Part shown: in pieces, positions 4,972 to 35,428 of the stretch | How the letters are laid out: each line of letters opens with the position of its first letter | Numbering within the stretch: position 1 is the first letter of the stretch | Source: an uncultured bacterium | GTDB taxonomy: Bacteria; CAIJMQ01 | Assembly (NCBI GenBank): GCA_964573245.1 | Contig: CAZNJA010000009.1 | Location: forward strand, 1 to 38,493 | Direction of reading: 5' to 3' | DNA: 38,493 nt | Program-made: the position numbers and the translations under genes | Notes under the pieces: model-generated | What the model saw: the letters and a program-made list of their open reading frames with translations, nothing else | What the model was told of the DNA's origin: nothing | The model's database searches: none

Positions 4972-5704
4972 ATTTAAACATATCCCTCCCTCACCCGGTA
5001 CTGCAGTAAAAGAAAAAACGGCTGTAATTATTGCTGCGGCGGGCAAAGGTAGGAGAATGAATCACTCCCTGCCAAAACAGTATCTGCCCTTGGAAGGAAA
5101 ACCGATTTTGGCGCATACATTAATAAATCTATCAAAAATTGAGACAGTGAATTCTATGACTTTAGTGGTTAGCGAAGACAGAATTGACTGGTGCAAGGAA
5201 AAAATAATTGGCAAGTTCAATATAAAGAAAGTGGACAGAATAATAAGTGGAGGTAACACACGCAGCGAATCCGTCAAAAACGGATTGGAAAGTTTGAACA
5301 AAAACACCAAGATAGTCGCAATTCATGATGGAGTCAGACCCTTCATAACAACGTCTATTTTCAACAATATAATTAAACATACTAAAGAATTCGGTGCGGC
5401 TGTATGCGCTATTCCTTTAAGAGATACGTTGAAAAATGTAAGCGGAAAAAGCGATATTGTATCAACACAGGACAGAAAAGGTTTATGGCTTGTGCAAACG
5501 CCACAGGTTTTTAAGTATTCTTTGATAATGGAAGCATATAAAAAAGCAGAAGAAGACGGTGTTCAGGCAACGGACGATGCAGGCCTTGTGGAAAGACTAC
5601 CGCATCCCGTGAAAATAGTTGAAGGAAGTTCGTTCAATATAAAAATAACCACGCCCGAAGATTTGATTCTTGCCGAAGCCATCTGGGAAATAGGAAACTG
5701 GTAA
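4964..5704 (+). CDS. ispD: 2-C-methyl-D-erythritol 4-phosphate cytidylyltransferase
   Basis: AAAGKGRRM, PKQY, GG.TRSESV, IHDGVRP, QTPQVF, TDDA, NIKITTPEDL. Confidence 0.96.
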   Translation: MDRFKHIPPSPGTAVKEKTAVIIAAAGKGRRMNHSLPKQYLPLEGKPILAHTLINLSKIETVNSMTLVVSEDRIDWCKEKIIGKFNIKKVDRIISGGNTRSESVKNGLESLNKNTKIVAIHDGVRPFITTSIFNNIIKHTKEFGAAVCAIPLRDTLKNVSGKSDIVSTQDRKGLWLVQTPQVFKYSLIMEAYKKAEEDGVQATDDAGLVERLPHPVKIVEGSSFNIKITTPEDLILAEAIWEIGNW

Positions 5705-5884
5705 AAAAATCAAGAATGAAAAAGTAAAAGGTAAAATGACATATTAAAATTCAAAGTGAAAAACAAGATTATTGATACAGGATGCTTAATATTAAAAAGC
5801 CAATTAATAAAATTTTATTTGACTTGCTTTATCTTTTTAAATTTTTATATGTATATTTAATATTTAATTTTTGATATTTAATTT
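5705..5884 (+). repeat. Heptamer-arm inverted element, family A, empty copy between ispD and ispF
   Basis: A-rich arm 5705-5755 and T-rich arm 5835-5884; by eye about 42/50 and 44/50 identical to the reverse-complemented arms at 35375-35424 and 35281-35330. Confidence 0.8.
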
Positions 5885-5893
5885 ATTACTACT

Positions 5894-6370
5894 ATGTTAA
5901 TCGGATTAGGATACGACATCCATAAATTAGAAGAAGGCAGAGCACTTGTTTTAGGCGGAGTTGAAATCCCGCATTCGAAGGGGCTTTCAGGCCATTCCGA
6001 CGCGGATGTAGTAACGCATTCAGTATGTGATGCTATTTTAGGCGCTATGGGCGAAAAAGATATAGGCGAACATTTCCCCGACACCGACGCAAAATATAAA
6101 AATATTCTCTCGCTAAAACTTTTGAAGAAAGTGTTGGAGATGATGAAAAAGGAAAATCTTGCGATAAACAATCTTGATATAACAATTGTTGCGCAGGAGC
6201 CGAGAGTTTCGCCTTTCAGAGACGAAATCAAAGAAAAAATAAATTCGATAATAAAAATTCCTTTAGACAACATCAATATAAAAGCAACTTCGCCTGAAGG
6301 ATTAGGCGCTTTGGGAAGCGGCGAAGGCATCGCTTGTATATCCATAGTCAGTCTTATTGAGAAGAAGTAA
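5894..6370 (+). CDS. ispF: 2-C-methyl-D-erythritol 2,4-cyclodiphosphate synthase
   Basis: IGLGYDIH, GHSDADV, DIGEHFPD, NIKATS.EGLG..G.GEGIA. Confidence 0.97.
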   Translation: MLIGLGYDIHKLEEGRALVLGGVEIPHSKGLSGHSDADVVTHSVCDAILGAMGEKDIGEHFPDTDAKYKNILSLKLLKKVLEMMKKENLAINNLDITIVAQEPRVSPFRDEIKEKINSIIKIPLDNINIKATSPEGLGALGSGEGIACISIVSLIEKK

Positions 6371-11878: not shown

Positions 11879-13366
11879 TTATATTATGGGTTTCTTCATA
11901 TGGTATTCCGTATTCTGTTCAAATGTGAAAGCGGTCTGTAAAATTTTCCCTTCATCAAAAGGTTTTCCGATAATTTGAAGACCTATCGGCAGTTTATCGG
12001 AGGAAAACCCGCAAGGTATAGAGATAGCAGGAAGTCCGGCCAAGTTTACGGGAATCGTGAATATATCAGAAAGATACATCTTTAATGGGTCGGAAACTTT
12101 CTCCCCTATTTTGAAAGCAGGCGTCGGAGAAACAGGCGTGACAATTACATCGCATTTTTTGAACACCTCATCAAAATCATTTTTTATCAGCGTTCTGACC
12201 TTTAGAGCTTTTAGGTAATATGCTTCATAATAGCCCGAAGACAAGGCATAAGTTCCAAGCATTATTCTTCTTTTTACCTCTTCGCCGAAACCCTCGTCTC
12301 GTGTTTTCTCGTACATATCAACGATTGAACTCACTTTGCTGTCTTCCGTCTTCTGCTTGCTGTTTGCTGTTCTATGTCCATAATGAACTCCGTCGTATCG
12401 CGCAAGGTTAGAGCTGGCTTCTGCAGGCGCAATAATATAATACGTTGCAACTGCATATTCTGTATGAGGTAAGGAAACCTCTACAATTTCGGCGCCCAAT
12501 TTCTTGAAAGTTTCTATAGCGTTTAAAATTGCTTTTTCGACTTCTTTATCCATCCCTTCGACAAAATATTCCTTAGGAATTCCTATTTTTAATTTTTTGG
12601 CATTGTTTATTAAATGCTTTGTATAATCCGGCACACTTTCACCAACAGAAGTAGAATCCATCGGGTCATGTCCTGCTATTACATTTAGAAGAATAGCTGT
12701 ATCTTGGACATCTTTTGTAAATGTGCCAATCTGGTCTAGGGAAGATGCAAATGCCACAAGCCCATATCGCGATACTCTTCCATAAGTGGGTTTTAATCCT
12801 ACGACTCCGCACATGCTTGCCGGCTGACGGATAGAGCCGCCCGTATCCGACCCCAATGACATAATTGCAAAATCGGCCGCCACACAAGCTGCAGAACCGC
12901 CCGAAGAACCGCCGGGTATAACCGAAAAGTCCCACGGATTTCTACATACTCCATAAGCAGAATTTTCGGTTGAAGAACCCATAGCGAATTCGTCCATGTT
13001 GGTTTTACCCAAAATTATGACATTCGCTTTTTTGAATTTTTCTGTAACTGTTGCGTCATAAATAGGGATATAATTTGATAGTATTTTTGAACCGCAAGTG
13101 GTTTTTATATTTCTTGTCGAGATAAGATCTTTTATTGCAATTGGAATGCCTGATAATGCTCCTATTTTTTCACCTTCACTTATTTTTTTGTCCACTTTTT
13201 CGGCTTCCTGCAAAGCCGACTCTTTGGTAAGAGTAATATAAGAATTTATATTTTTATCTAATTTTTCTATGCGCTCATAAATATTTTTTGCAATTTCAAG
13301 CGAAGAAGTTTTCTTCTCCACAAGCAGTTTATTTAATTCGTGAGCGGTTAATTCGTATAATTCCAT
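11879..13366 (-). CDS. gatA: Asp/Glu-tRNA amidotransferase subunit A
   Basis: [46 protein letters not shown]; start set at the ATG (MELYEL) rather than the TTG at 13372. Confidence 0.98.
12339..12373 (-). repeat. Degenerate heptamer tract in frame in gatA
   Basis: ctgtctt ccgtctt ctgcttg ctgtttg ctgttct; encodes [12 protein letters not shown]. Confidence 0.6.
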
Positions 13367-13378
13367 GTTCAATCCCTT

Positions 13379-14124
13379 AAATCAAAAATTAAAAATCAAA
13401 TATCAAAAATACATATCAAAATGCAAAAAGAAATAAATCCGAATTATTTATTAGACCTTGCTTTCCGTTCTTGAATACTTTTTAATAAATAAGGCGCAGC
13501 TTCTTCGTAGGTTTTACCTGATTTTATGCTGTTACAAACAAGGCAGCTTGTTTTCAGGTTGTCTTTTGTATGCTTTCCTTCTTTGCTTTGGGGTATCAAG
13601 TGGTCAAGTGTTGCGTTTTGGAAAGTTACTTTTTCACCGCAATAAAAACAGGTCCATTTATCTCTTTCAAAAATTTCTTTTCTTTTTTCTTCATCAGTAA
13701 AATAATTTTCCTCTTTCGGATCTTGAGTAATTGAAAGTTTTTCTTTTACTAAAGGAATTTCCTCCGGAAGAAAAACAATATATAGTGTTCCGTCGCGGTT
13801 AATATCGCCAACTTTAATGCAGCTTTTTTCTTCAAGTCCCTTAACCAATTTCGTAACATGGGCGTAATTCGTTTTTTCACCACGAGAACCTTTGCCGTAA
13901 TTTTCTGCAATAGTCCTTTTGCCAATTCGGATTTTAGGAGAATTATTTTTTATATGCGAATTGCGCAAAAAGAAAATATAAAGCGATGCCTCGTAGGGAG
14001 TAAGTTCGGGTACCAAAAAATCTACATATTGCTCAATTATAGCTTTTATATCTTTTGACATATTAGTTTCTTAATTTTGATTTTTGATTTGTCATTTTGC
14101 ATTTTAATTTTTGATTTTTACATT
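13379..14124 (-). mobile_element. Family A heptamer-arm element carrying an HNH gene, between gatC and gatA
   Basis: Arm 13379-13428 and arm 14073-14124 match the empty copies at 35281-35424 and 5705-5884; mobility is inferred. Confidence 0.6.
13444..14061 (-). CDS. HNH endonuclease with a probable N-terminal winged-HTH domain
   Basis: IFERDKWTCFYCG, DHLIPQSKEGKHTKDNLKTSCLVCNSIK (CxxC...DH...N...CxxCN); N-terminal half LTPYEASLY..L...IA...V...L.EK..I looks wHTH-like. Confidence 0.88.
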   Translation of the reverse strand: MSKDIKAIIEQYVDFLVPELTPYEASLYIFFLRNSHIKNNSPKIRIGKRTIAENYGKGSRGEKTNYAHVTKLVKGLEEKSCIKVGDINRDGTLYIVFLPEEIPLVKEKLSITQDPKEENYFTDEEKRKEIFERDKWTCFYCGEKVTFQNATLDHLIPQSKEGKHTKDNLKTSCLVCNSIKSGKTYEEAAPYLLKSIQERKARSNK

Positions 14125-14131
14125 TATTACT

Positions 14132-14425
14132 CTATTCTATGATTGGAGGGACTTTAAAATATCCTCTTTCTTTATCGGGCGCGTTTTTTAGCACTTCTTC
14201 TACGGGAAAAGAGGGTTTTATAATATCTTTTCTTCTGACGTTTCCTAAAAGGACAACCTGCAAAGTCGGCTCTATATTGGACGTATCAAGCTGGTTTAAT
14301 TTGTCTATATATTCAAGTATAGTGTTTAATTGTTGCGTGAATTTTCCTATCTCGTCTTCTTTTAATTTTAACCGAGATAATTTCGCAACATGTTCAATGT
14401 CTTTTTTGGTTATGATATTTTTCAT
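14132..14425 (-). CDS. gatC: Asp/Glu-tRNA amidotransferase subunit C
   Basis: ITKKDIEHVAKLSRL, L..LDT..IEPT, NAP....YFKVP. Confidence 0.96.
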   Translation of the reverse strand: MKNIITKKDIEHVAKLSRLKLKEDEIGKFTQQLNTILEYIDKLNQLDTSNIEPTLQVVLLGNVRRKDIIKPSFPVEEVLKNAPDKERGYFKVPPIIE

Positions 14426-20316: not shown

Positions 20317-23300
20317 TTATTTCACACTCTTTTCACTAACCCATATCAAAGGAGCAAGTGTCTTTCTTACTATATTTTTCAATATAGGACTTTCTTCTAT
20401 AAATCTGGCTATAGGAGGAGATGCTCTATAGTAAATGCTTACAAATTTTTCTCCTATTGGGTTGGTTAACAGATATTCATTTCTAAAACTTCTTAGGGTT
20501 CTCACTTCTTTAGACATCTCTGCCCCATATGAGGCAGTTGCTATAAAACACCACTTTTTCCCCTTGTCGTCGTCATCATCACCGCCTGTATCAAAAATCG
20601 TTTCAACTCCACTAACGGCAAAAACACTACCTGCAATAGCTTCAAAAGTTACTCTGCCTAAAGAGTCCGACAGGTATAATCCCAAGAGTACTCCGTCTTT
20701 TGTTACAGCATAATAGTTGTTTGGGGTAAGGCCATTTATAGTATGCGTTGCTGTAATACCCGGCGCGCCTGCTTCTTCTGTCCACTGTTTGTAATAAGGA
20801 GCAGAAGTGTTCCATGCGTCAAAGGAAAGATCAATTCTAACAGGAGAGGATAATACGATATCCATTATGGAAGTGTCTGAGGTTAGAGAATCTTCAAAAA
20901 TAATGCTGATAATGCCGGTATCATTGGCATCCGCCGTTGCCGATAAAACCATAATGTTCTCGTCAGAGATGCTCTTTATTGCAGGAGTTGTGGCATACTC
21001 ATAAGTGAATTCAGTGCGAGAGGGGAGAAGCTGTCCATATTCACTCATATGATAGTCCCAATCATCGTTGTCGGTATCGTCTCTTGTATCAGGGAAGGTA
21101 GTCCAGTAAGGAAGAAGCCCCTTTATTTTCAGCGACAACCAATACCAACTTTGAGGATAGTCCATCACCCAATTTATATCAGTAAGCGTTCTGTTAATCC
21201 AAATGTAAAGAAGAGAAAAAGGTATAGAAAGCGATTTTTCGACATATCCCTCTACTCCTTTTTCAAGAAAACTAGCATACTGCTCAATGCCGATATAGAG
21301 TTCTGCTTCATCGCCGGGGTCAAATGTTTTATACCAAATATAACTGTCAATATCTGACAAATTAGCCAGAGGGTAATCCGGTATTTCTTCAGGAGAAGTT
21401 ATAACAAATCGCGCGCACCAGCCTACTTTCATACTTGTCGGCGGTTCTAAGTACAGGGATTTTGAATCGTAAATACTTCCCAGCGATTGTCCGTGGGTCG
21501 GATTTATTCCTCTAAAATAGTATGTAGTTGTTTGTGTGTCAATATCCCCGACAAAGAAAAGTATTCTTCTTTTTGTGGTGTTTAAATTTTCATCAGTGAC
21601 GGTGAAAATCAGGGAATATGTTCCCGGTTTGGTTACAGTAAAATGACCTTGGGGATTATTGGTGATAGCCCAATTATTATCAGCCGTGATTGTTTCTGAT
21701 GGAGAAGTTGTAATGGCAGTGCAATCCTCACAGTCAGTGCCATCGAGATTAAAGGCGGAAATGCCGAAACTGACCGTATCATCAACGTTCTTTGTTCTCG
21801 GGTCAGCATCGGTAAAAGTCAGCATCTTGCTGAGCATATTGTCATTGAACCGGTTTGATGAGTAAGTGTTGATTGTCCCGGTGTTGTAAATATCGTTTCT
21901 GTTCTTTGAGATAATGTTGCCGGTTAAGGTATTTGAGGAGGAAGAATTCAGATAGATACCGTATTTATTTGAGTATACCGTATTTTCCGTTATTTGGTTA
22001 TCGTTTGATGAAGAGTTCAGGTAGATGCCGAATTCATTGAATTGCACCGTATTTCCCATTATTAGGTTATCGTTTGATGAAGAGTTCAGATAGATGCCGT
22101 ATCTATTTGAGTTGACAGTGATATTCTCAATTGTTGAATTGCTTGTATTACCAAAATAGACGCAATAACGGTTGCGAGGCGAGAGGGTGGCATTTTTTAC
22201 TTGGACGTAGGAGCTGTTTATGCACCAGAACATTCCGATATCTCCTATCTCATCACCGTCATAGACAAGAGGTACCTCAGCAGTTCCGTGTTCGTCATAT
22301 AAGTAATAGACCGGCTTGCCCTCCACCATGTTGGTGTTGTCTATATTGTTGTCGTATGCGCCTGCGACATAAAGATTATACGTGTTTCCCGACATTGTAT
22401 TGCCGGTCAGAGTGTTGCCGGAAGAAGAGAGTAAGTAAATGCCATGAGTGTAGCTTGAACTCGTTATGTTCCCTATCAGGTTGTTATTTGAGGAAAATTT
22501 AAGATAGATACTGTAGTCATTTGAGTTAGCAGCGATATTCTCAATTGTTGAATTGCCGGTGCCGTCAAAATAGACGCCGTAACGGTTGTTAGGCGAGAGG
22601 GTGGCATTTTTTACTTGGACGTAGGAGCTGTTTATGCACCAGAACATTCCGATATCTCCTATCTCATCACCGTCATAGACGAGAGGCACCTCAGCAGTTC
22701 CGTGTTCGCTGTGTAAATAATAGATAGGCTTTCCTTCAACTGTATTGGTAGTATCTATATCGTTGTAATATGTGGCAGGCATGAGCTGAAGATTGTATTC
22801 ATTCCCAGACATTGTGTTGCCGGTCAGAGTGTTGCCGGAAGAAGAGTTCAGATAGATGCCTGTTTTATCATTAAAGTTCGCTATATTTCCTATTAGGTCG
22901 TTTGAGTCGGCAAGAGCATAGCTATAGATACCATAGATATTGAAATTGGTAGTATTATTGAGTAGAGTGTTGTTGCTTACGAATTTCAAGTAAATGCCAT
23001 AATAATTGTTGTTTGCAATAACATTTTCTATAACGCAATCGGTATAAGGTGCGGATGGATTTGGTGACGCTAGATACACCCCCGCTTTCTGGTTACCGAT
23101 TGCACCTTCCGCCGTAAACCCGATTATTTTGACATTACTTTCTGTTATGGTGAATACATTCTCAGACGGGTCCGGTGTTTGAACAATACAGTTATCGGGA
23201 CCGTTCTGTGAGCTTATAGCTAAACCCTTATCAACGGTGACACTCTCCGAGTAGGTACCATCCGCAACTAAAACGGTATCTCCAACGTCCGCTGTGTCAA

Positions 23301-23475
23301 CTGCATTTTGTATTGTGAGTTTGGCAGTGGGCCACGTGAGTCCATCATGACCATCATCTCCGGTAGTGCTGACATAATAATAGGTATCTGCGGCAGAAAC
23401 ATTGTCAGCTCCAAGTAAAAAAACAACGGAGAACAAAAGTACCCATAAAATAATAATAATTTTGTTTTTATTCAT
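20317..23475 (-). CDS. Secreted parallel beta-helix (NosD/CASH-like) repeat protein with C-terminal CFI-box-CTERM domain
   Basis: Signal peptide, TIQNAVD.A..GDTV.V..GTY, many GIYL..S.NN.L..N repeats, GGDDDDDKGKKWCFIATASYG...LR.FR...L...G..FV..YYR.SPP.A; ATG 23475 preferred to TTG 23484. Confidence 0.85.
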   Translation of the reverse strand: MNKNKIIIILWVLLFSVVFLLGADNVSAADTYYYVSTTGDDGHDGLTWPTAKLTIQNAVDTADVGDTVLVADGTYSESVTVDKGLAISSQNGPDNCIVQTPDPSENVFTITESNVKIIGFTAEGAIGNQKAGVYLASPNPSAPYTDCVIENVIANNNYYGIYLKFVSNNTLLNNTTNFNIYGIYSYALADSNDLIGNIANFNDKTGIYLNSSSGNTLTGNTMSGNEYNLQLMPATYYNDIDTTNTVEGKPIYYLHSEHGTAEVPLVYDGDEIGDIGMFWCINSSYVQVKNATLSPNNRYGVYFDGTGNSTIENIAANSNDYSIYLKFSSNNNLIGNITSSSYTHGIYLLSSSGNTLTGNTMSGNTYNLYVAGAYDNNIDNTNMVEGKPVYYLYDEHGTAEVPLVYDGDEIGDIGMFWCINSSYVQVKNATLSPRNRYCVYFGNTSNSTIENITVNSNRYGIYLNSSSNDNLIMGNTVQFNEFGIYLNSSSNDNQITENTVYSNKYGIYLNSSSSNTLTGNIISKNRNDIYNTGTINTYSSNRFNDNMLSKMLTFTDADPRTKNVDDTVSFGISAFNLDGTDCEDCTAITTSPSETITADNNWAITNNPQGHFTVTKPGTYSLIFTVTDENLNTTKRRILFFVGDIDTQTTTYYFRGINPTHGQSLGSIYDSKSLYLEPPTSMKVGWCARFVITSPEEIPDYPLANLSDIDSYIWYKTFDPGDEAELYIGIEQYASFLEKGVEGYVEKSLSIPFSLLYIWINRTLTDINWVMDYPQSWYWLSLKIKGLLPYWTTFPDTRDDTDNDDWDYHMSEYGQLLPSRTEFTYEYATTPAIKSISDENIMVLSATADANDTGIISIIFEDSLTSDTSIMDIVLSSPVRIDLSFDAWNTSAPYYKQWTEEAGAPGITATHTINGLTPNNYYAVTKDGVLLGLYLSDSLGRVTFEAIAGSVFAVSGVETIFDTGGDDDDDKGKKWCFIATASYGAEMSKEVRTLRSFRNEYLLTNPIGEKFVSIYYRASPPIARFIEESPILKNIVRKTLAPLIWVSEKSVK
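22177..22708 (-). repeat. Internal duplication in the beta-helix gene (offset 414 nt = 138 aa)
   Basis: 22177-22294 and 22591-22708 differ at 2 of 118 positions, both synonymous. Confidence 0.9.
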
Positions 23476-23502
23476 ATCTATCAATATATTTTACCACGAA
23501 AA

Positions 23503-23559: not shown

Positions 23560-24330
23560 TTATTCTTCTATTTTTTCCATTATTTCATCAGGAATATCAA
23601 AATTAGCATAGACATTTTGAACATCGTCGTGTTCTTCTAATGCTTCTACAAGTTGTAACATCTTTTCCGCGGATTTTGCGTCCGTAATGGGAATGGGGTT
23701 TTCGGGCAACATCTCAATTTTTGCCGAAGATATATGGATATTTTCATTCTTAAGAGCTTCCTTAACAGCGTTTAAATCTTCTACCTTTGCAATCAATGCG
23801 CACTCTTCATTTTCCACCCTGAAATCTTCTGCTCCCGTGTTTATGGTAAGTTCCATTAATTCTTCTTCGCTAAATTTCTCTTTCTTTTCTAGGGTCCTAA
23901 AGATAGAGATTGTTGCTACACCTTTCTTCTTAAAAAACCTAGCCGCAGAACCCGGAGATGCGAGATTACCGCCAAATTTTGAAAATATATGTTTCATTTC
24001 AGAAGAAGTCCGGTTTTTATTGTCGGTTATTCCTTCTATAAAAAAAGCTACTCCACCGGGGCCATATGCTTCATAACTACATTGCTCCAAAATAACACCA
24101 GGCAATTCCCCCGTACCTTTTTTTATTGCGCGGGTTATGTTATCTTGCGGCATGTTGACTTCCCTTGCCGCATCCACCGCCGTTCTTAACACGGAATTCA
24201 TGCTGATATCGCCGCCGCTACGCGCAGCGATCGTAATCTGTTTGCCTATACGGCTGAAAACTTTTCCTCTTGCCGCGTCTGCCTTTCCCTTTTTGTGTTT
24301 TATACTTGCCCAATGACTGTGTCCTGACAT
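23560..24330 (-). CDS. yebC: YebC/PmpR family protein
   Basis: MSGHSHWASIKHKKG..DA.RGK.F, YEAYGPGG, TDNKNRT, LEEHDDVQNVYAN. Confidence 0.96.
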   Translation of the reverse strand: MSGHSHWASIKHKKGKADAARGKVFSRIGKQITIAARSGGDISMNSVLRTAVDAAREVNMPQDNITRAIKKGTGELPGVILEQCSYEAYGPGGVAFFIEGITDNKNRTSSEMKHIFSKFGGNLASPGSAARFFKKKGVATISIFRTLEKKEKFSEEELMELTINTGAEDFRVENEECALIAKVEDLNAVKEALKNENIHISSAKIEMLPENPIPITDAKSAEKMLQLVEALEEHDDVQNVYANFDIPDEIMEKIEE

Positions 24331-24416
24331 GTTTTATTCCTCCATTTACGAAATTTGTGTTTTATACTTGCCCAATGACTGTGTCCTGACATGTTTTATT
24401 CCTCCATTTACGAAAT
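24292..24416. repeat. Perfect 62-bp tandem duplication covering the yebC RBS, start codon and first 13 codons
   Basis: 24292-24354 is identical to 24354-24416. Confidence 0.95.
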
Positions 24417-35274: not shown

Positions 35275-35280
35275 ATATTT

Positions 35281-35424
35281 AAATTAAATATTAAAAATCA
35301 AATATCAAAAATACATATGAAAATGTAAAATCGGCAAAGCCATTCATATTTTTTACATTACCTTTTTGTTCCTTTTTGAATTTTGATTTGTAATTTTGCA
35401 TTTTACATTTTGATTTTTGATTTT
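35281..35424 (-). repeat. Heptamer-arm inverted element, family A, empty copy between nadK and leuC
   Basis: Shares ttaaaaatcaaatatcaaaaatacatat exactly with the arm at 13389-13416, and ttttgatttgt.attttgcatttta with the arm at 14082-14106. Confidence 0.85.
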
Positions 35425-35428
35425 ATTA

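Follow-up and report, generated by a model that had tools for sequence, protein, structure and literature searches.

We analysed a 38,493-nucleotide (nt) stretch of DNA, hereafter the window, which constitutes contig CAZNJA010000009.1 (contig C9) of the draft genome of an uncultured bacterium (G000; 1.46 Mb, 38% G+C, 110 contigs), and in which a gene for an HNH-domain protein lies between gatC and gatA, enclosed by two AT-rich, inverted arrays of degenerate 7-nt units, here called arms. Our main finding is that these arms are probably the ends of a small cassette, of a TCAAAAA flavour, whose own gene encodes a four-helix-bundle protein; at gatC-gatA the body of the cassette would have been swapped for the HNH gene, and at two other places in the window it would have been gutted. 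For the gatC-gatA copy and for one of the other two, this reading follows from the first codons of the four-helix-bundle gene that both still keep. All of the evidence is comparative and includes three draft genomes of the same genus (G001-G003; G001 was searched over 1.03 Mb), a genome of another genus (G004), and metagenome contigs.

At the gatC-gatA junction, gatC, the HNH gene and gatA all lie on the minus strand, as do the arms. The upstream host gene gatC (14132..14425; Pfam GatC, E 1e-23) has its stop codon 5 nt before an A-rich heptamer array, the 5′ arm (14073..14126; nhmmer profile a5, E 1e-8; repeat family D2), which is followed by the cargo gene for P0001 (13444..14061), a protein of 205 amino acids (aa) with an N-terminal winged-helix-like part and a C-terminal HNH domain (Pfam HNH at residues 138-181, E 7e-12). 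A T-rich heptamer array forms the 3′ arm (13374..13427; nhmmer profile a3, E 1e-8; inverted repeat I4), and directly 3′ of it come a Shine-Dalgarno-like AAGGGA and the ATG of the downstream host gene gatA (11879..13366; Pfam Amidase, E 3.5e-168), whose start was set at ATG 13366 following the junction alignment with G001. The preliminary description of two inverted AT-rich arms around the HNH gene was borne out by the profile matches, and also by a repeat search, which returned 13379-13435 and 14061-14117 as inverted stretches of 57 nt that are 72% complementary. The inverted-repeat score of this copy was 22.5, above the highest score (19) among 396 control genes, all taken from G000, which also supplied our 95th- and 99th-percentile cut-offs.

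The loop of this copy holds the HNH gene and not an open reading frame (ORF) of the PF05635/TIGR02436 four-helix-bundle family, which is reduced here to a 7-codon remnant. The remnant begins an 18-codon stub ORF (14046..14102, minus strand; translation MQNDKSKIKIKKLICQKI*): its codons 1-7 (MQNDKSK) are the start of the four-helix-bundle gene of intact cassettes, and the stub overlaps the HNH start codon in a different frame. We conclude that, judged by its sequence, the HNH copy would be a cargo-swapped derivative and a non-canonical member of the four-helix-bundle cassette class defined here. The expectation that gatC and gatA are normally adjacent was upheld, with 6 nt between the two genes in G001, 5 nt in G004 and a 4-nt overlap of the reading frames in G005. 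The HNH gene is absent from this junction in G001-G005, and the spacers of 127 and 99 nt found there in G002 and G003 are built of a different heptamer unit. Among the metagenome contigs, one of 1207 nt covers gatA-arm-HNH-arm-gatC with 0 differences and may derive from the genome's own sample, while in another, which is 183 nt long and comes from a relative with 7 differences in 62 nt, gatA at 13312 is joined to gatC at 14133; this relative may lack the insert.

The arm pair recurs at two further window sites, as had been noticed earlier, with loops of 43 nt (35279-35425) and 78 nt (5705-5885) between the profile-defined arms. The first of these copies lies on the minus strand at a junction of NAD kinase and a leuC-like gene, with its 5′ arm at 35373..35425 (a5, E 7e-9) and its 3′ arm at 35279..35329 (a3, E 9e-9). 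The arms of the HNH copy match the stretches at 35279-35428 at 87-92% in direct register, and the previously reported run of identity between the two copies does exist, only its length is 29 nt (13388-13416 = 35290-35318) rather than 28. Alignment with intact cassettes and translation identified a 36-codon remnant ORF here (35291..35401, minus strand; MQNYKSKFKKEQKG...), whose first 11 codons (MQNYKSKFKKE) are identical at 10 of 11 residues to the N-terminus of the four-helix-bundle protein; unrelated codons follow, and the rest of the gene is deleted. Read from these codons, the copy at 35279-35428 is demonstrably what one would expect of a gutted four-helix-bundle cassette. The second copy lies on the plus strand between ispD and ispF (5′ arm 5705..5758, a5, E 1e-7; loop 5759..5836; 3′ arm 5837..5885, a3, E 2e-5), and the arms of the HNH copy match the stretches at 5705-5892 at 62-71%. 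We did not find a four-helix-bundle stub in this copy, which reads ATG ACA TAT TAA, and it is classed as probably gutted too by analogy. The earlier picture of these copies as vacant landing pads gives way to one of probable deletion derivatives of the four-helix-bundle cassette. As a separate observation, a module, GATTCTTGATAC...ATGCT, is common to the loop of the ispD-ispF copy (window 5705-5893) and to that of a copy on G000 contig C2 (27827-27996).

Intact cassettes were identified outside the source genome. A 123-aa four-helix-bundle protein (Pfam PF05635, E 5e-18; TIGR02436, E 4.5e-22) is encoded between the same arms on contig C19 of G002 and at two metagenome loci, L159 and L198, and the proteins of G002 and L198 are 79% identical. 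In all three intact copies the ORF starts at an ATG of the arm motif, and MQNDKSKFKKEF is encoded by the arm together with the bases directly after it, so that the start codon and about the first 11 codons lie within the 5′ arm. Loops measure -4 to 90 nt in 32 of the 36 adjacent arm pairs from metagenomes and 147-345 nt in the other four, and two of these four long loops encode the 123-aa protein.

The arms also enclose genes other than these two, in agreement with the suggestion that the cargo would vary. In G000, an ORF for a restriction-enzyme-like protein of 345 aa, which matches SduA_C, HSDR_N and a BbrUII/HgiDII restriction enzyme below the cut-off, lies between ybaB and recR, and membrane-type ORFs of 136 aa and 177 aa lie between dnaB and radA and between lysS and a lolC-like gene, respectively. 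In G001, membrane-type ORFs of 211 aa (ybaB-recR) and 129 aa (pyrH-frr) were found, and in G002 one of 190 aa (tmk-holB). In all eight cases the cargo runs in the same direction as the genes on either side. When the cargo proteins were compared with the PADLOC defence models, P0001 gave HNH-domain matches only (PtuB and others), and the other six proteins gave none.

We then characterised the arms as a family. Fourteen G000 arm pairs were aligned in transcript orientation to build separate nhmmer models of the 5′ arm (a5) and the 3′ arm (a3), and a copy of G000 shuffled within 60-nt blocks served as the chance control at a cut-off of E<=0.01. G000 gave 23 matches to the 5′-arm and 26 to the 3′-arm model and the shuffled genome 0 and 0; arms therefore do not arise at an equal rate in shuffled DNA, and chance low-complexity similarity was ruled out as their source. 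Keeping the better model at each place, we counted 44 arm places in G000 and 17 in the 1.03 Mb of G001. A whole copy of 150 nt used as the query matched 55, 24, 49 and 34 places in the four genomes of the genus; the sister genus gave 3 matches. Arms are 85-92% identical between species. From metagenomes, a 19-letter arm motif retrieved at least 119 stretches; 80 loci were examined, and 67 of them have profile matches, on contigs of 27-58% G+C. The gene-less copies show the traits of miniature inverted-repeat transposable elements (MITEs), namely inverted ends, small size, many copies and no coding capacity.

The placement of the arms agrees with the preliminary description: by profile boundaries, 0-5 nt separate the stop codon of the upstream gene from the 5′ arm, and 1-8 nt lie between the end of the 3′ arm and the following start codon. 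The claim that all copies share a polarity relative to transcription had to be put on another footing, since an A-rich-first order is true on both strands of any palindrome and is uninformative; it holds by a conserved difference between arm types, the 5′ type having ...ATGCAAAATGACAAATC... and the 3′ type ...GATATGTATTTTTGATATTTGA.... By this difference, 14 of 16 pairs in G000 and 5 of 5 in G001 are in sense orientation to both flanking genes, counts that are partly non-independent, at least two sites being orthologous in the two genomes; the exceptions in G000 are one antisense pair (contig C21, 3243-3419) and one ambiguous pair (contig C5). Many metagenome pairs have two 5′-type arms, and the 5′/3′ asymmetry would therefore belong to this sub-lineage. 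At a broader scale, spacers of 60-400 nt in G000 and G001 have a self-identity of 0.33-0.35 at lag 7, compared with 0.285-0.30 at other lags.

Several further observations concern the arms. Some of them contain a nested GC-rich repeat of about 63 nt with a double hairpin (CCCCTAGAAATTGC...), in the 5′ arm usually at one position, between AAAATG and CAAAATGAC; in G000 we located it at C12 20952-21200, C16 21266-21365, C44 10435-10530, C64 492-650, C21 3243-3419 and C70 3338-3375. Heptamer runs of the same flavour also occur in frame within genes at C2 18796-18830 and C13 78-114 of G000; one of the two lies inside a 513-aa ORF (...NIKNQISNIKYN...), and the other forms the apparent leader of a prepilin-type protein. 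In addition, an arm pair at C21 2620-2772 lies between smpB and the apparent 5′ end of a transfer-messenger RNA (GGGGGTGCCAAGGCATCGAC...), as judged from the look of the sequence.

The HNH gene behaves as an outsider to these arms. We had considered that the arms were the HNH gene's own inverted repeats, and dropped this candidate, as the same-genus genomes carry 24-49 arm matches and no full-length HNH orthologue. Among 41 genomes searched, only G004 has a full-length relative of P0001 (42% identity), and that gene has no such flanks; G001-G003 gave HNH-domain matches only (residues ~111-194), mostly to ORFs of ~270 aa, for which a second HNH locus of G000 (contig C5) is a further match. In a large protein collection the family comprises 631 proteins at E<1e-5, and the best 120 of the 631 are 67-80% identical over 92-100% of the query, with source names among these 120 that include Omnitrophica, Chloroflexi/Dehalococcoidales, Pacebacteria and Saccharimonadales. 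Named genomes contain 41 loci of the family, 34 of them full-length at 45-79% identity, and the hosts include Planctomycetia, Melainabacteria, Dehalococcoidales, Saccharibacteria, Bacteroidales, Gamma- and Deltaproteobacteria, Methanobacterium and Nanoarchaeia. Flanks that are both inverted and heptamer-periodic were found at none of 35 loci (34 from named genomes and that of G004); a non-periodic inverted repeat occurs at one of these loci and a one-sided heptamer run at two. Neighbouring genes vary and include small XRE-type regulators, ATPases and tRNA genes. Because its identity across phyla is high beside the median protein identity of 78% between G000 and G001 orthologues, the HNH gene appears to be a frequent traveller between hosts.

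In the HNH protein family, residues D153, H154 and N177 and four cysteines are invariant in 27 aligned sequences. An AlphaFold2 model of P0001 (predicted local distance difference test score, pLDDT, 84) has a winged-helix-like N-terminal domain, and this part has weak Foldseek matches to TFIIE, TrmBL2, CodY, MarR and Fur, all at E above 0.001; the C-terminal HNH domain likewise has a weak fold match to the nickase 4h9d (E 3e-3 to 4e-2 over both parts) and resembles the HNH domains of IscB and Cas9. Apart from this, we observed that at four loci (L100, L101, L102 and L109; three genomes of Dehalococcoidales/Dehalococcoidaceae and one of Deltaproteobacteria) an HNH relative lies ~20-30 nt behind one conserved gene, whose product ends ...EEKDF..ALM.EVEG., which suggests either a preferred insertion site or vertical inheritance in this group.

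Comparison of G000 with G001 revealed turnover of the cassettes between species. Of 550 gene pairs adjacent in both genomes, 12 carry arms in G000 only, five in G001 only and three in both; at gatC-gatA and at dnaB-radA, G001 has 6-nt spacers without a trace of arms. At ybaB-recR, both the cargo and the 5′ arm differ between the two species, while the 3′ arms are near-identical and have a private variant in common. A four-helix-bundle lineage with CGGTTATCG arms lies at a hypC-/hypD-like junction in G000 and at another junction in G001, and several orthologous junctions carry different arm flavours in the two genomes. Spacer length is conserved between them (Spearman 0.68), and in each about 40% of co-directional junctions are at least 60 nt long. 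Because spacer length is conserved and the flavours differ at orthologous junctions, some junctions would be permissive and reused. In four salt-marsh metagenome runs, contigs skip 643-685 nt between arms. We rejected excision as the explanation, since the matching sides are only 21-45 nt and the summed depth is tens to about 1100 at the arms versus about 5 at the flanks; these contigs were read as other copies of the repeat.

The arrangement of a PF05635 gene between heptamer arms extends beyond the TCAAAAA flavour. The four genomes of the genus, G000-G003, have 6, 5, 4 and 5 PF05635 matches (20 in total), and G004 has none. The flanks of 15 of 19 such genes reach the 95th percentile of the inverted-repeat score and those of 9 of 19 the 99th (Mann-Whitney p 4e-10, relatives being non-independent); two genes, an orthologous pair, lack arms, and another is placed at the end of a contig. 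On visual inspection, the flanks are mostly arrays of 7-9-nt units, with a distinct unit for each gene lineage (CGGTTATCG, GTAAGCT, GACAGAG, ACGAAAC, GTTAACA and others). In other bacterial families, 16 of 22 PF05635 loci, on contigs of 0.34-0.64 G+C, reach the 95th-percentile cut-off, a comparison that is rough given a control drawn from G000 only; perfect arrays occur at some of these loci, for example TAAAGCC x9. The NCBIfam Avd model gave weak, below-cut-off matches to two cassette proteins. Beside these loci, G000 has two small ORFs of 90 aa (C1 10059-10331) and 95 aa (C27 11437-11724) with the N-terminal motif MYYVY..S....YIGYT.N...RL.EHN, which by the look of the motif resemble small proteins of the GIY-YIG nuclease family; their flanks score 21 and 19 for inverted repeats, no lower than the best of the 396 controls, with little 7-nt periodicity, and the two ORFs may represent another type of small nuclease cassette.

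Based on these results, we propose that the cassette enters the spacer between co-directional operon genes as a unit of arms and ORF, as would follow from the presence of one four-helix-bundle lineage with one arm flavour (CGGTTATCG) at different junctions in G000 and G001. It begins directly behind a stop codon, ends just ahead of the next ribosome-binding site, and would be co-transcribed with the host operon. Recombination in the conserved, multi-copy arms or next to them would exchange the cargo, and at 13374-14126 the body of the four-helix-bundle ORF would have been replaced, ORF for ORF, by the winged-helix-HNH gene. Nuclease cargo might possibly assist such exchange, and the HNH protein may conceivably promote its own entry. 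The idea of a landing pad or cassette boundary is thereby retained in part: boundaries do occur with and without genes in conserved operons and the cargo does vary, and the vacant pads are given up. A bolder extension, which we hold tentatively and regard as unlikely, is that heptamer-armed cassettes form a cross-phylum, "operon-safe" chassis, in which the arms act as portable homology, perhaps also as nuclease targets, and let selfish nucleases displace the native gene. On such a chassis the 5′ arm would give a start codon and leader to any ORF, the 3′ arm would restore expression of the next host gene, and an HNH gene inside an essential operon such as gatCAB would be hard to delete.

A number of results weigh against the proposal that the arms are the ends of a four-helix-bundle cassette. 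An intact cassette of this arm flavour was not found in G000, so that the link to the four-helix-bundle gene rests on the sister species and on metagenome contigs. Genes outside the window were called by a longest-ORF heuristic, and some of the cargo ORFs may not be real genes: the 177-aa membrane-type cargo has 0 relatives among 5.8 billion proteins, and no function is claimed for the membrane-type ORFs. A target-site duplication could not be read at filled versus empty junctions, the species being too diverged (49% identity at four-fold degenerate sites between G000 and G001, over 16,880 sites in 200 genes, where composition alone predicts 26%), and an excised or empty form of the gatC-gatA locus in the same strain was not seen in metagenome contigs. 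Searches for mobilising enzymes covered PF00589, rve (PF00665), Y1_Tnp and RVT_1, and among these families no transposase, integrase or reverse transcriptase was found to accompany the arms: RVT_1 gave 0 matches in five genomes, rve gave 0 in G000, and Y1_Tnp gave 1, 0, 4, 2 and 0 in G000-G004, a distribution that does not track the arms. Finally, the ispD-ispF spacer, arms and loop included, is 88% identical between G000 and G001 (167/189), and the flanking proteins are 80% and 78% identical. This conservation, set against 49% at four-fold sites, is more in keeping with a host function than with a selfish remnant in decay; the copy would be either constrained or recently exchanged. No conserved small ORF was found in this spacer, and Rfam gave 0 matches at E<=1 in 5600-6000.

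We weighed several other explanations against this proposal. One of them concerns RNA: the arms would pair in the operon transcript, and RNase III would cut the stem, free the cargo RNA and separate the cistrons. Such processing could coexist with the cassette reading, and the native cargo family is one that is encoded in ribosomal RNA (rRNA) intervening sequences excised by RNase III, according to the account in PMC4990558. The sense bias of 19 of 20 clearly typed pairs is in line with it, and so is the arm-arm duplex of the HNH copy, the best of all at -25.7 kcal/mol (z -4.1 versus shuffled arms; mean z -1.5), with z of about -2.5 for cargo copies and about -0.9 for gene-less ones (small numbers). 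However, gene-less copies are no more stable than shuffles when folded over the whole element (-20.4 versus -21.2; -6.7 versus -8.0), cognate arm pairs form no stronger duplexes than non-cognate ones (-14.7 versus -18.9), the sense strand has no advantage over the antisense, and Rfam returned no match in the window at gathering scores. The looping out of cargo by an RNA duplex, which the preliminary description had offered, is therefore thermodynamically unconvincing for most copies, and we consider this explanation rather unlikely. Scans for promoter and terminator consensus in two arm regions were likewise not above shuffles. Nuclease-driven homing, in which the HNH protein cuts intact or gutted cassettes or the four-helix-bundle gene and repair proceeds from the HNH copy with the arms as homology, is a specific version of the cargo-swap step more than a full alternative. 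The swap is indeed ORF for ORF with the arms left intact, two of the non-native cargos of G000 are nucleases, the HNH family is sporadic, near ORF-sized and packed 0-25 nt from its neighbours at many loci, and arms that are so similar between species are high-copy in the habitat. But the HNH gene occupies one of at least 16 arm pairs in G000 and none of those seen in G001-G003 or of the 36 metagenome pairs, and 0 of 35 relatives lie in such arms, making homing quite improbable.

The arms could also be the terminal inverted repeats of an insertion sequence, with a transposase acting from elsewhere on a MITE or mobile insertion cassette. The elements are multi-copy, measure about 100-190 nt and have inverted ends; orthologous sites occur both filled and empty, insertions can be nested, and some heptamer runs lie in frame within genes. 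In these features they resemble ERIC, Correia and RPE elements as outlined in PMC2229807. Against this, the searched families yielded no cognate transposase, the target duplication is unreadable at this divergence, and the recurrent inner gene encodes a four-helix-bundle protein, not a transposase; we judge this explanation very unlikely. An integron-style array, with the arms as integrase recombination sites, has next to nothing to recommend it beyond promoter-less single ORFs in one orientation and imperfect inverted repeats. Arms lie on both sides of the ORF instead of at a single 3′ site, and copies occur one by one, dispersed among housekeeping operons, and not in arrays. The earlier statement that the window has no integrase or transposase stands for the two families searched there (PF00589 and PF00665, 0 matches), and the two PF00589 tyrosine recombinases of G000 are both on contigs outside the window; the integron-style comparison was accordingly set aside.

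The proposed cassette can be compared with several known systems. Free-standing homing endonuclease genes of phages (HNH, GIY-YIG) are lone nuclease ORFs between conserved genes; P0001 likewise has an HNH domain, is wedged between conserved genes, is sporadic in close relatives and is highly mobile, whereas it is found in a cellular genome, within another element's arms. Mobile insertion cassettes of Bacillus hold passenger genes between insertion-sequence-type inverted repeats and are moved in trans. In outline they are similar in having non-transposition passengers between inverted repeats that also occur cargo-free, but an insertion sequence with the present ends and its transposase were not found here in the families searched. 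The 23S rRNA of Leptospira reportedly has ORF-bearing intervening sequences. In Coxiella burnetii, an rRNA intervening sequence with an S23p ORF at helix 45 is described as excised by RNase III, horizontally acquired and treated as selfish (PMC4990558). As far as that description goes, 23S rRNA intervening sequences share with our element a small size, complementary ends, a PF05635/S23p ORF and a position inside an essential transcript; unlike them, the present element is intercistronic, its ends are 7-nt arrays, and in the window the ORF is replaced by HNH. The pentameric Avd protein of diversity-generating retroelements differs in context, as RVT_1 has no match in the five genomes. PF05635 is nevertheless reported to resemble Avd and to include proteins encoded in rRNA intervening sequences (PMC10053308), and PMC11637426 lists a gene of the four-helix-bundle family.

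Among repeat families, REPIN-RAYT and REP-BIME systems are summarised as multi-copy intergenic palindromic doublets served by a repeat-flanked gene (PMC3333891, PMC8266576). On that summary, multi-copy intergenic doublets plus a flanked gene are common to both, but the flanked genes here are not Y1 transposases, and G001 has arms without a Y1_Tnp match. ERIC/IRU, Correia/NEMIS (including Correia repeat-enclosed elements) and RPE are outlined in PMC2229807 as multi-copy imperfect palindromes, about 100-200 nt long, that are co-transcribed, with orientation-dependent effects on mRNA (ERIC), size variants with internal inserts and some in-frame gene fusions. By the same outline, the cassettes resemble these MITEs as small multi-copy palindromes in transcribed spacers with inserts and in-frame copies; they differ in having heptamer arrays as arms, one specific protein gene recurring inside and several unrelated flavours, and a TA duplication is not demonstrable. 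Our literature search returned no paper tying the PF05635 family to heptamer arrays or operon spacers, and none under "TIGR02436".

Elsewhere in the window, two other repeats were observed. The repeat search identified a perfect tandem duplication at 24292-24415, two copies of a 62-nt unit that are 100% identical. An ORF of 1055 aa on the minus strand (20317-23484) has internal repeats, with 69-nt units at 21938-22144 and blocks of 299 and 72 nt recurring at a spacing of 414-417 nt.

PF05635, the "intervening-sequence protein" family, is large and without an assigned function. What is new here is that the same arms carry unrelated genes, two nucleases included, that the cargo differs at one junction between sister species with an arm retained, and that one AT-rich arm flavour spans contigs of 27-58% G+C. 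For annotation, such spacers fill part of the ~40% of operon junctions of at least 60 nt in the genus, and the ATG codons of the arms can yield spurious or genuinely new small ORFs. Together, these results offer a testable model for how small selfish genes may enter and persist in the essential operons of streamlined genomes.

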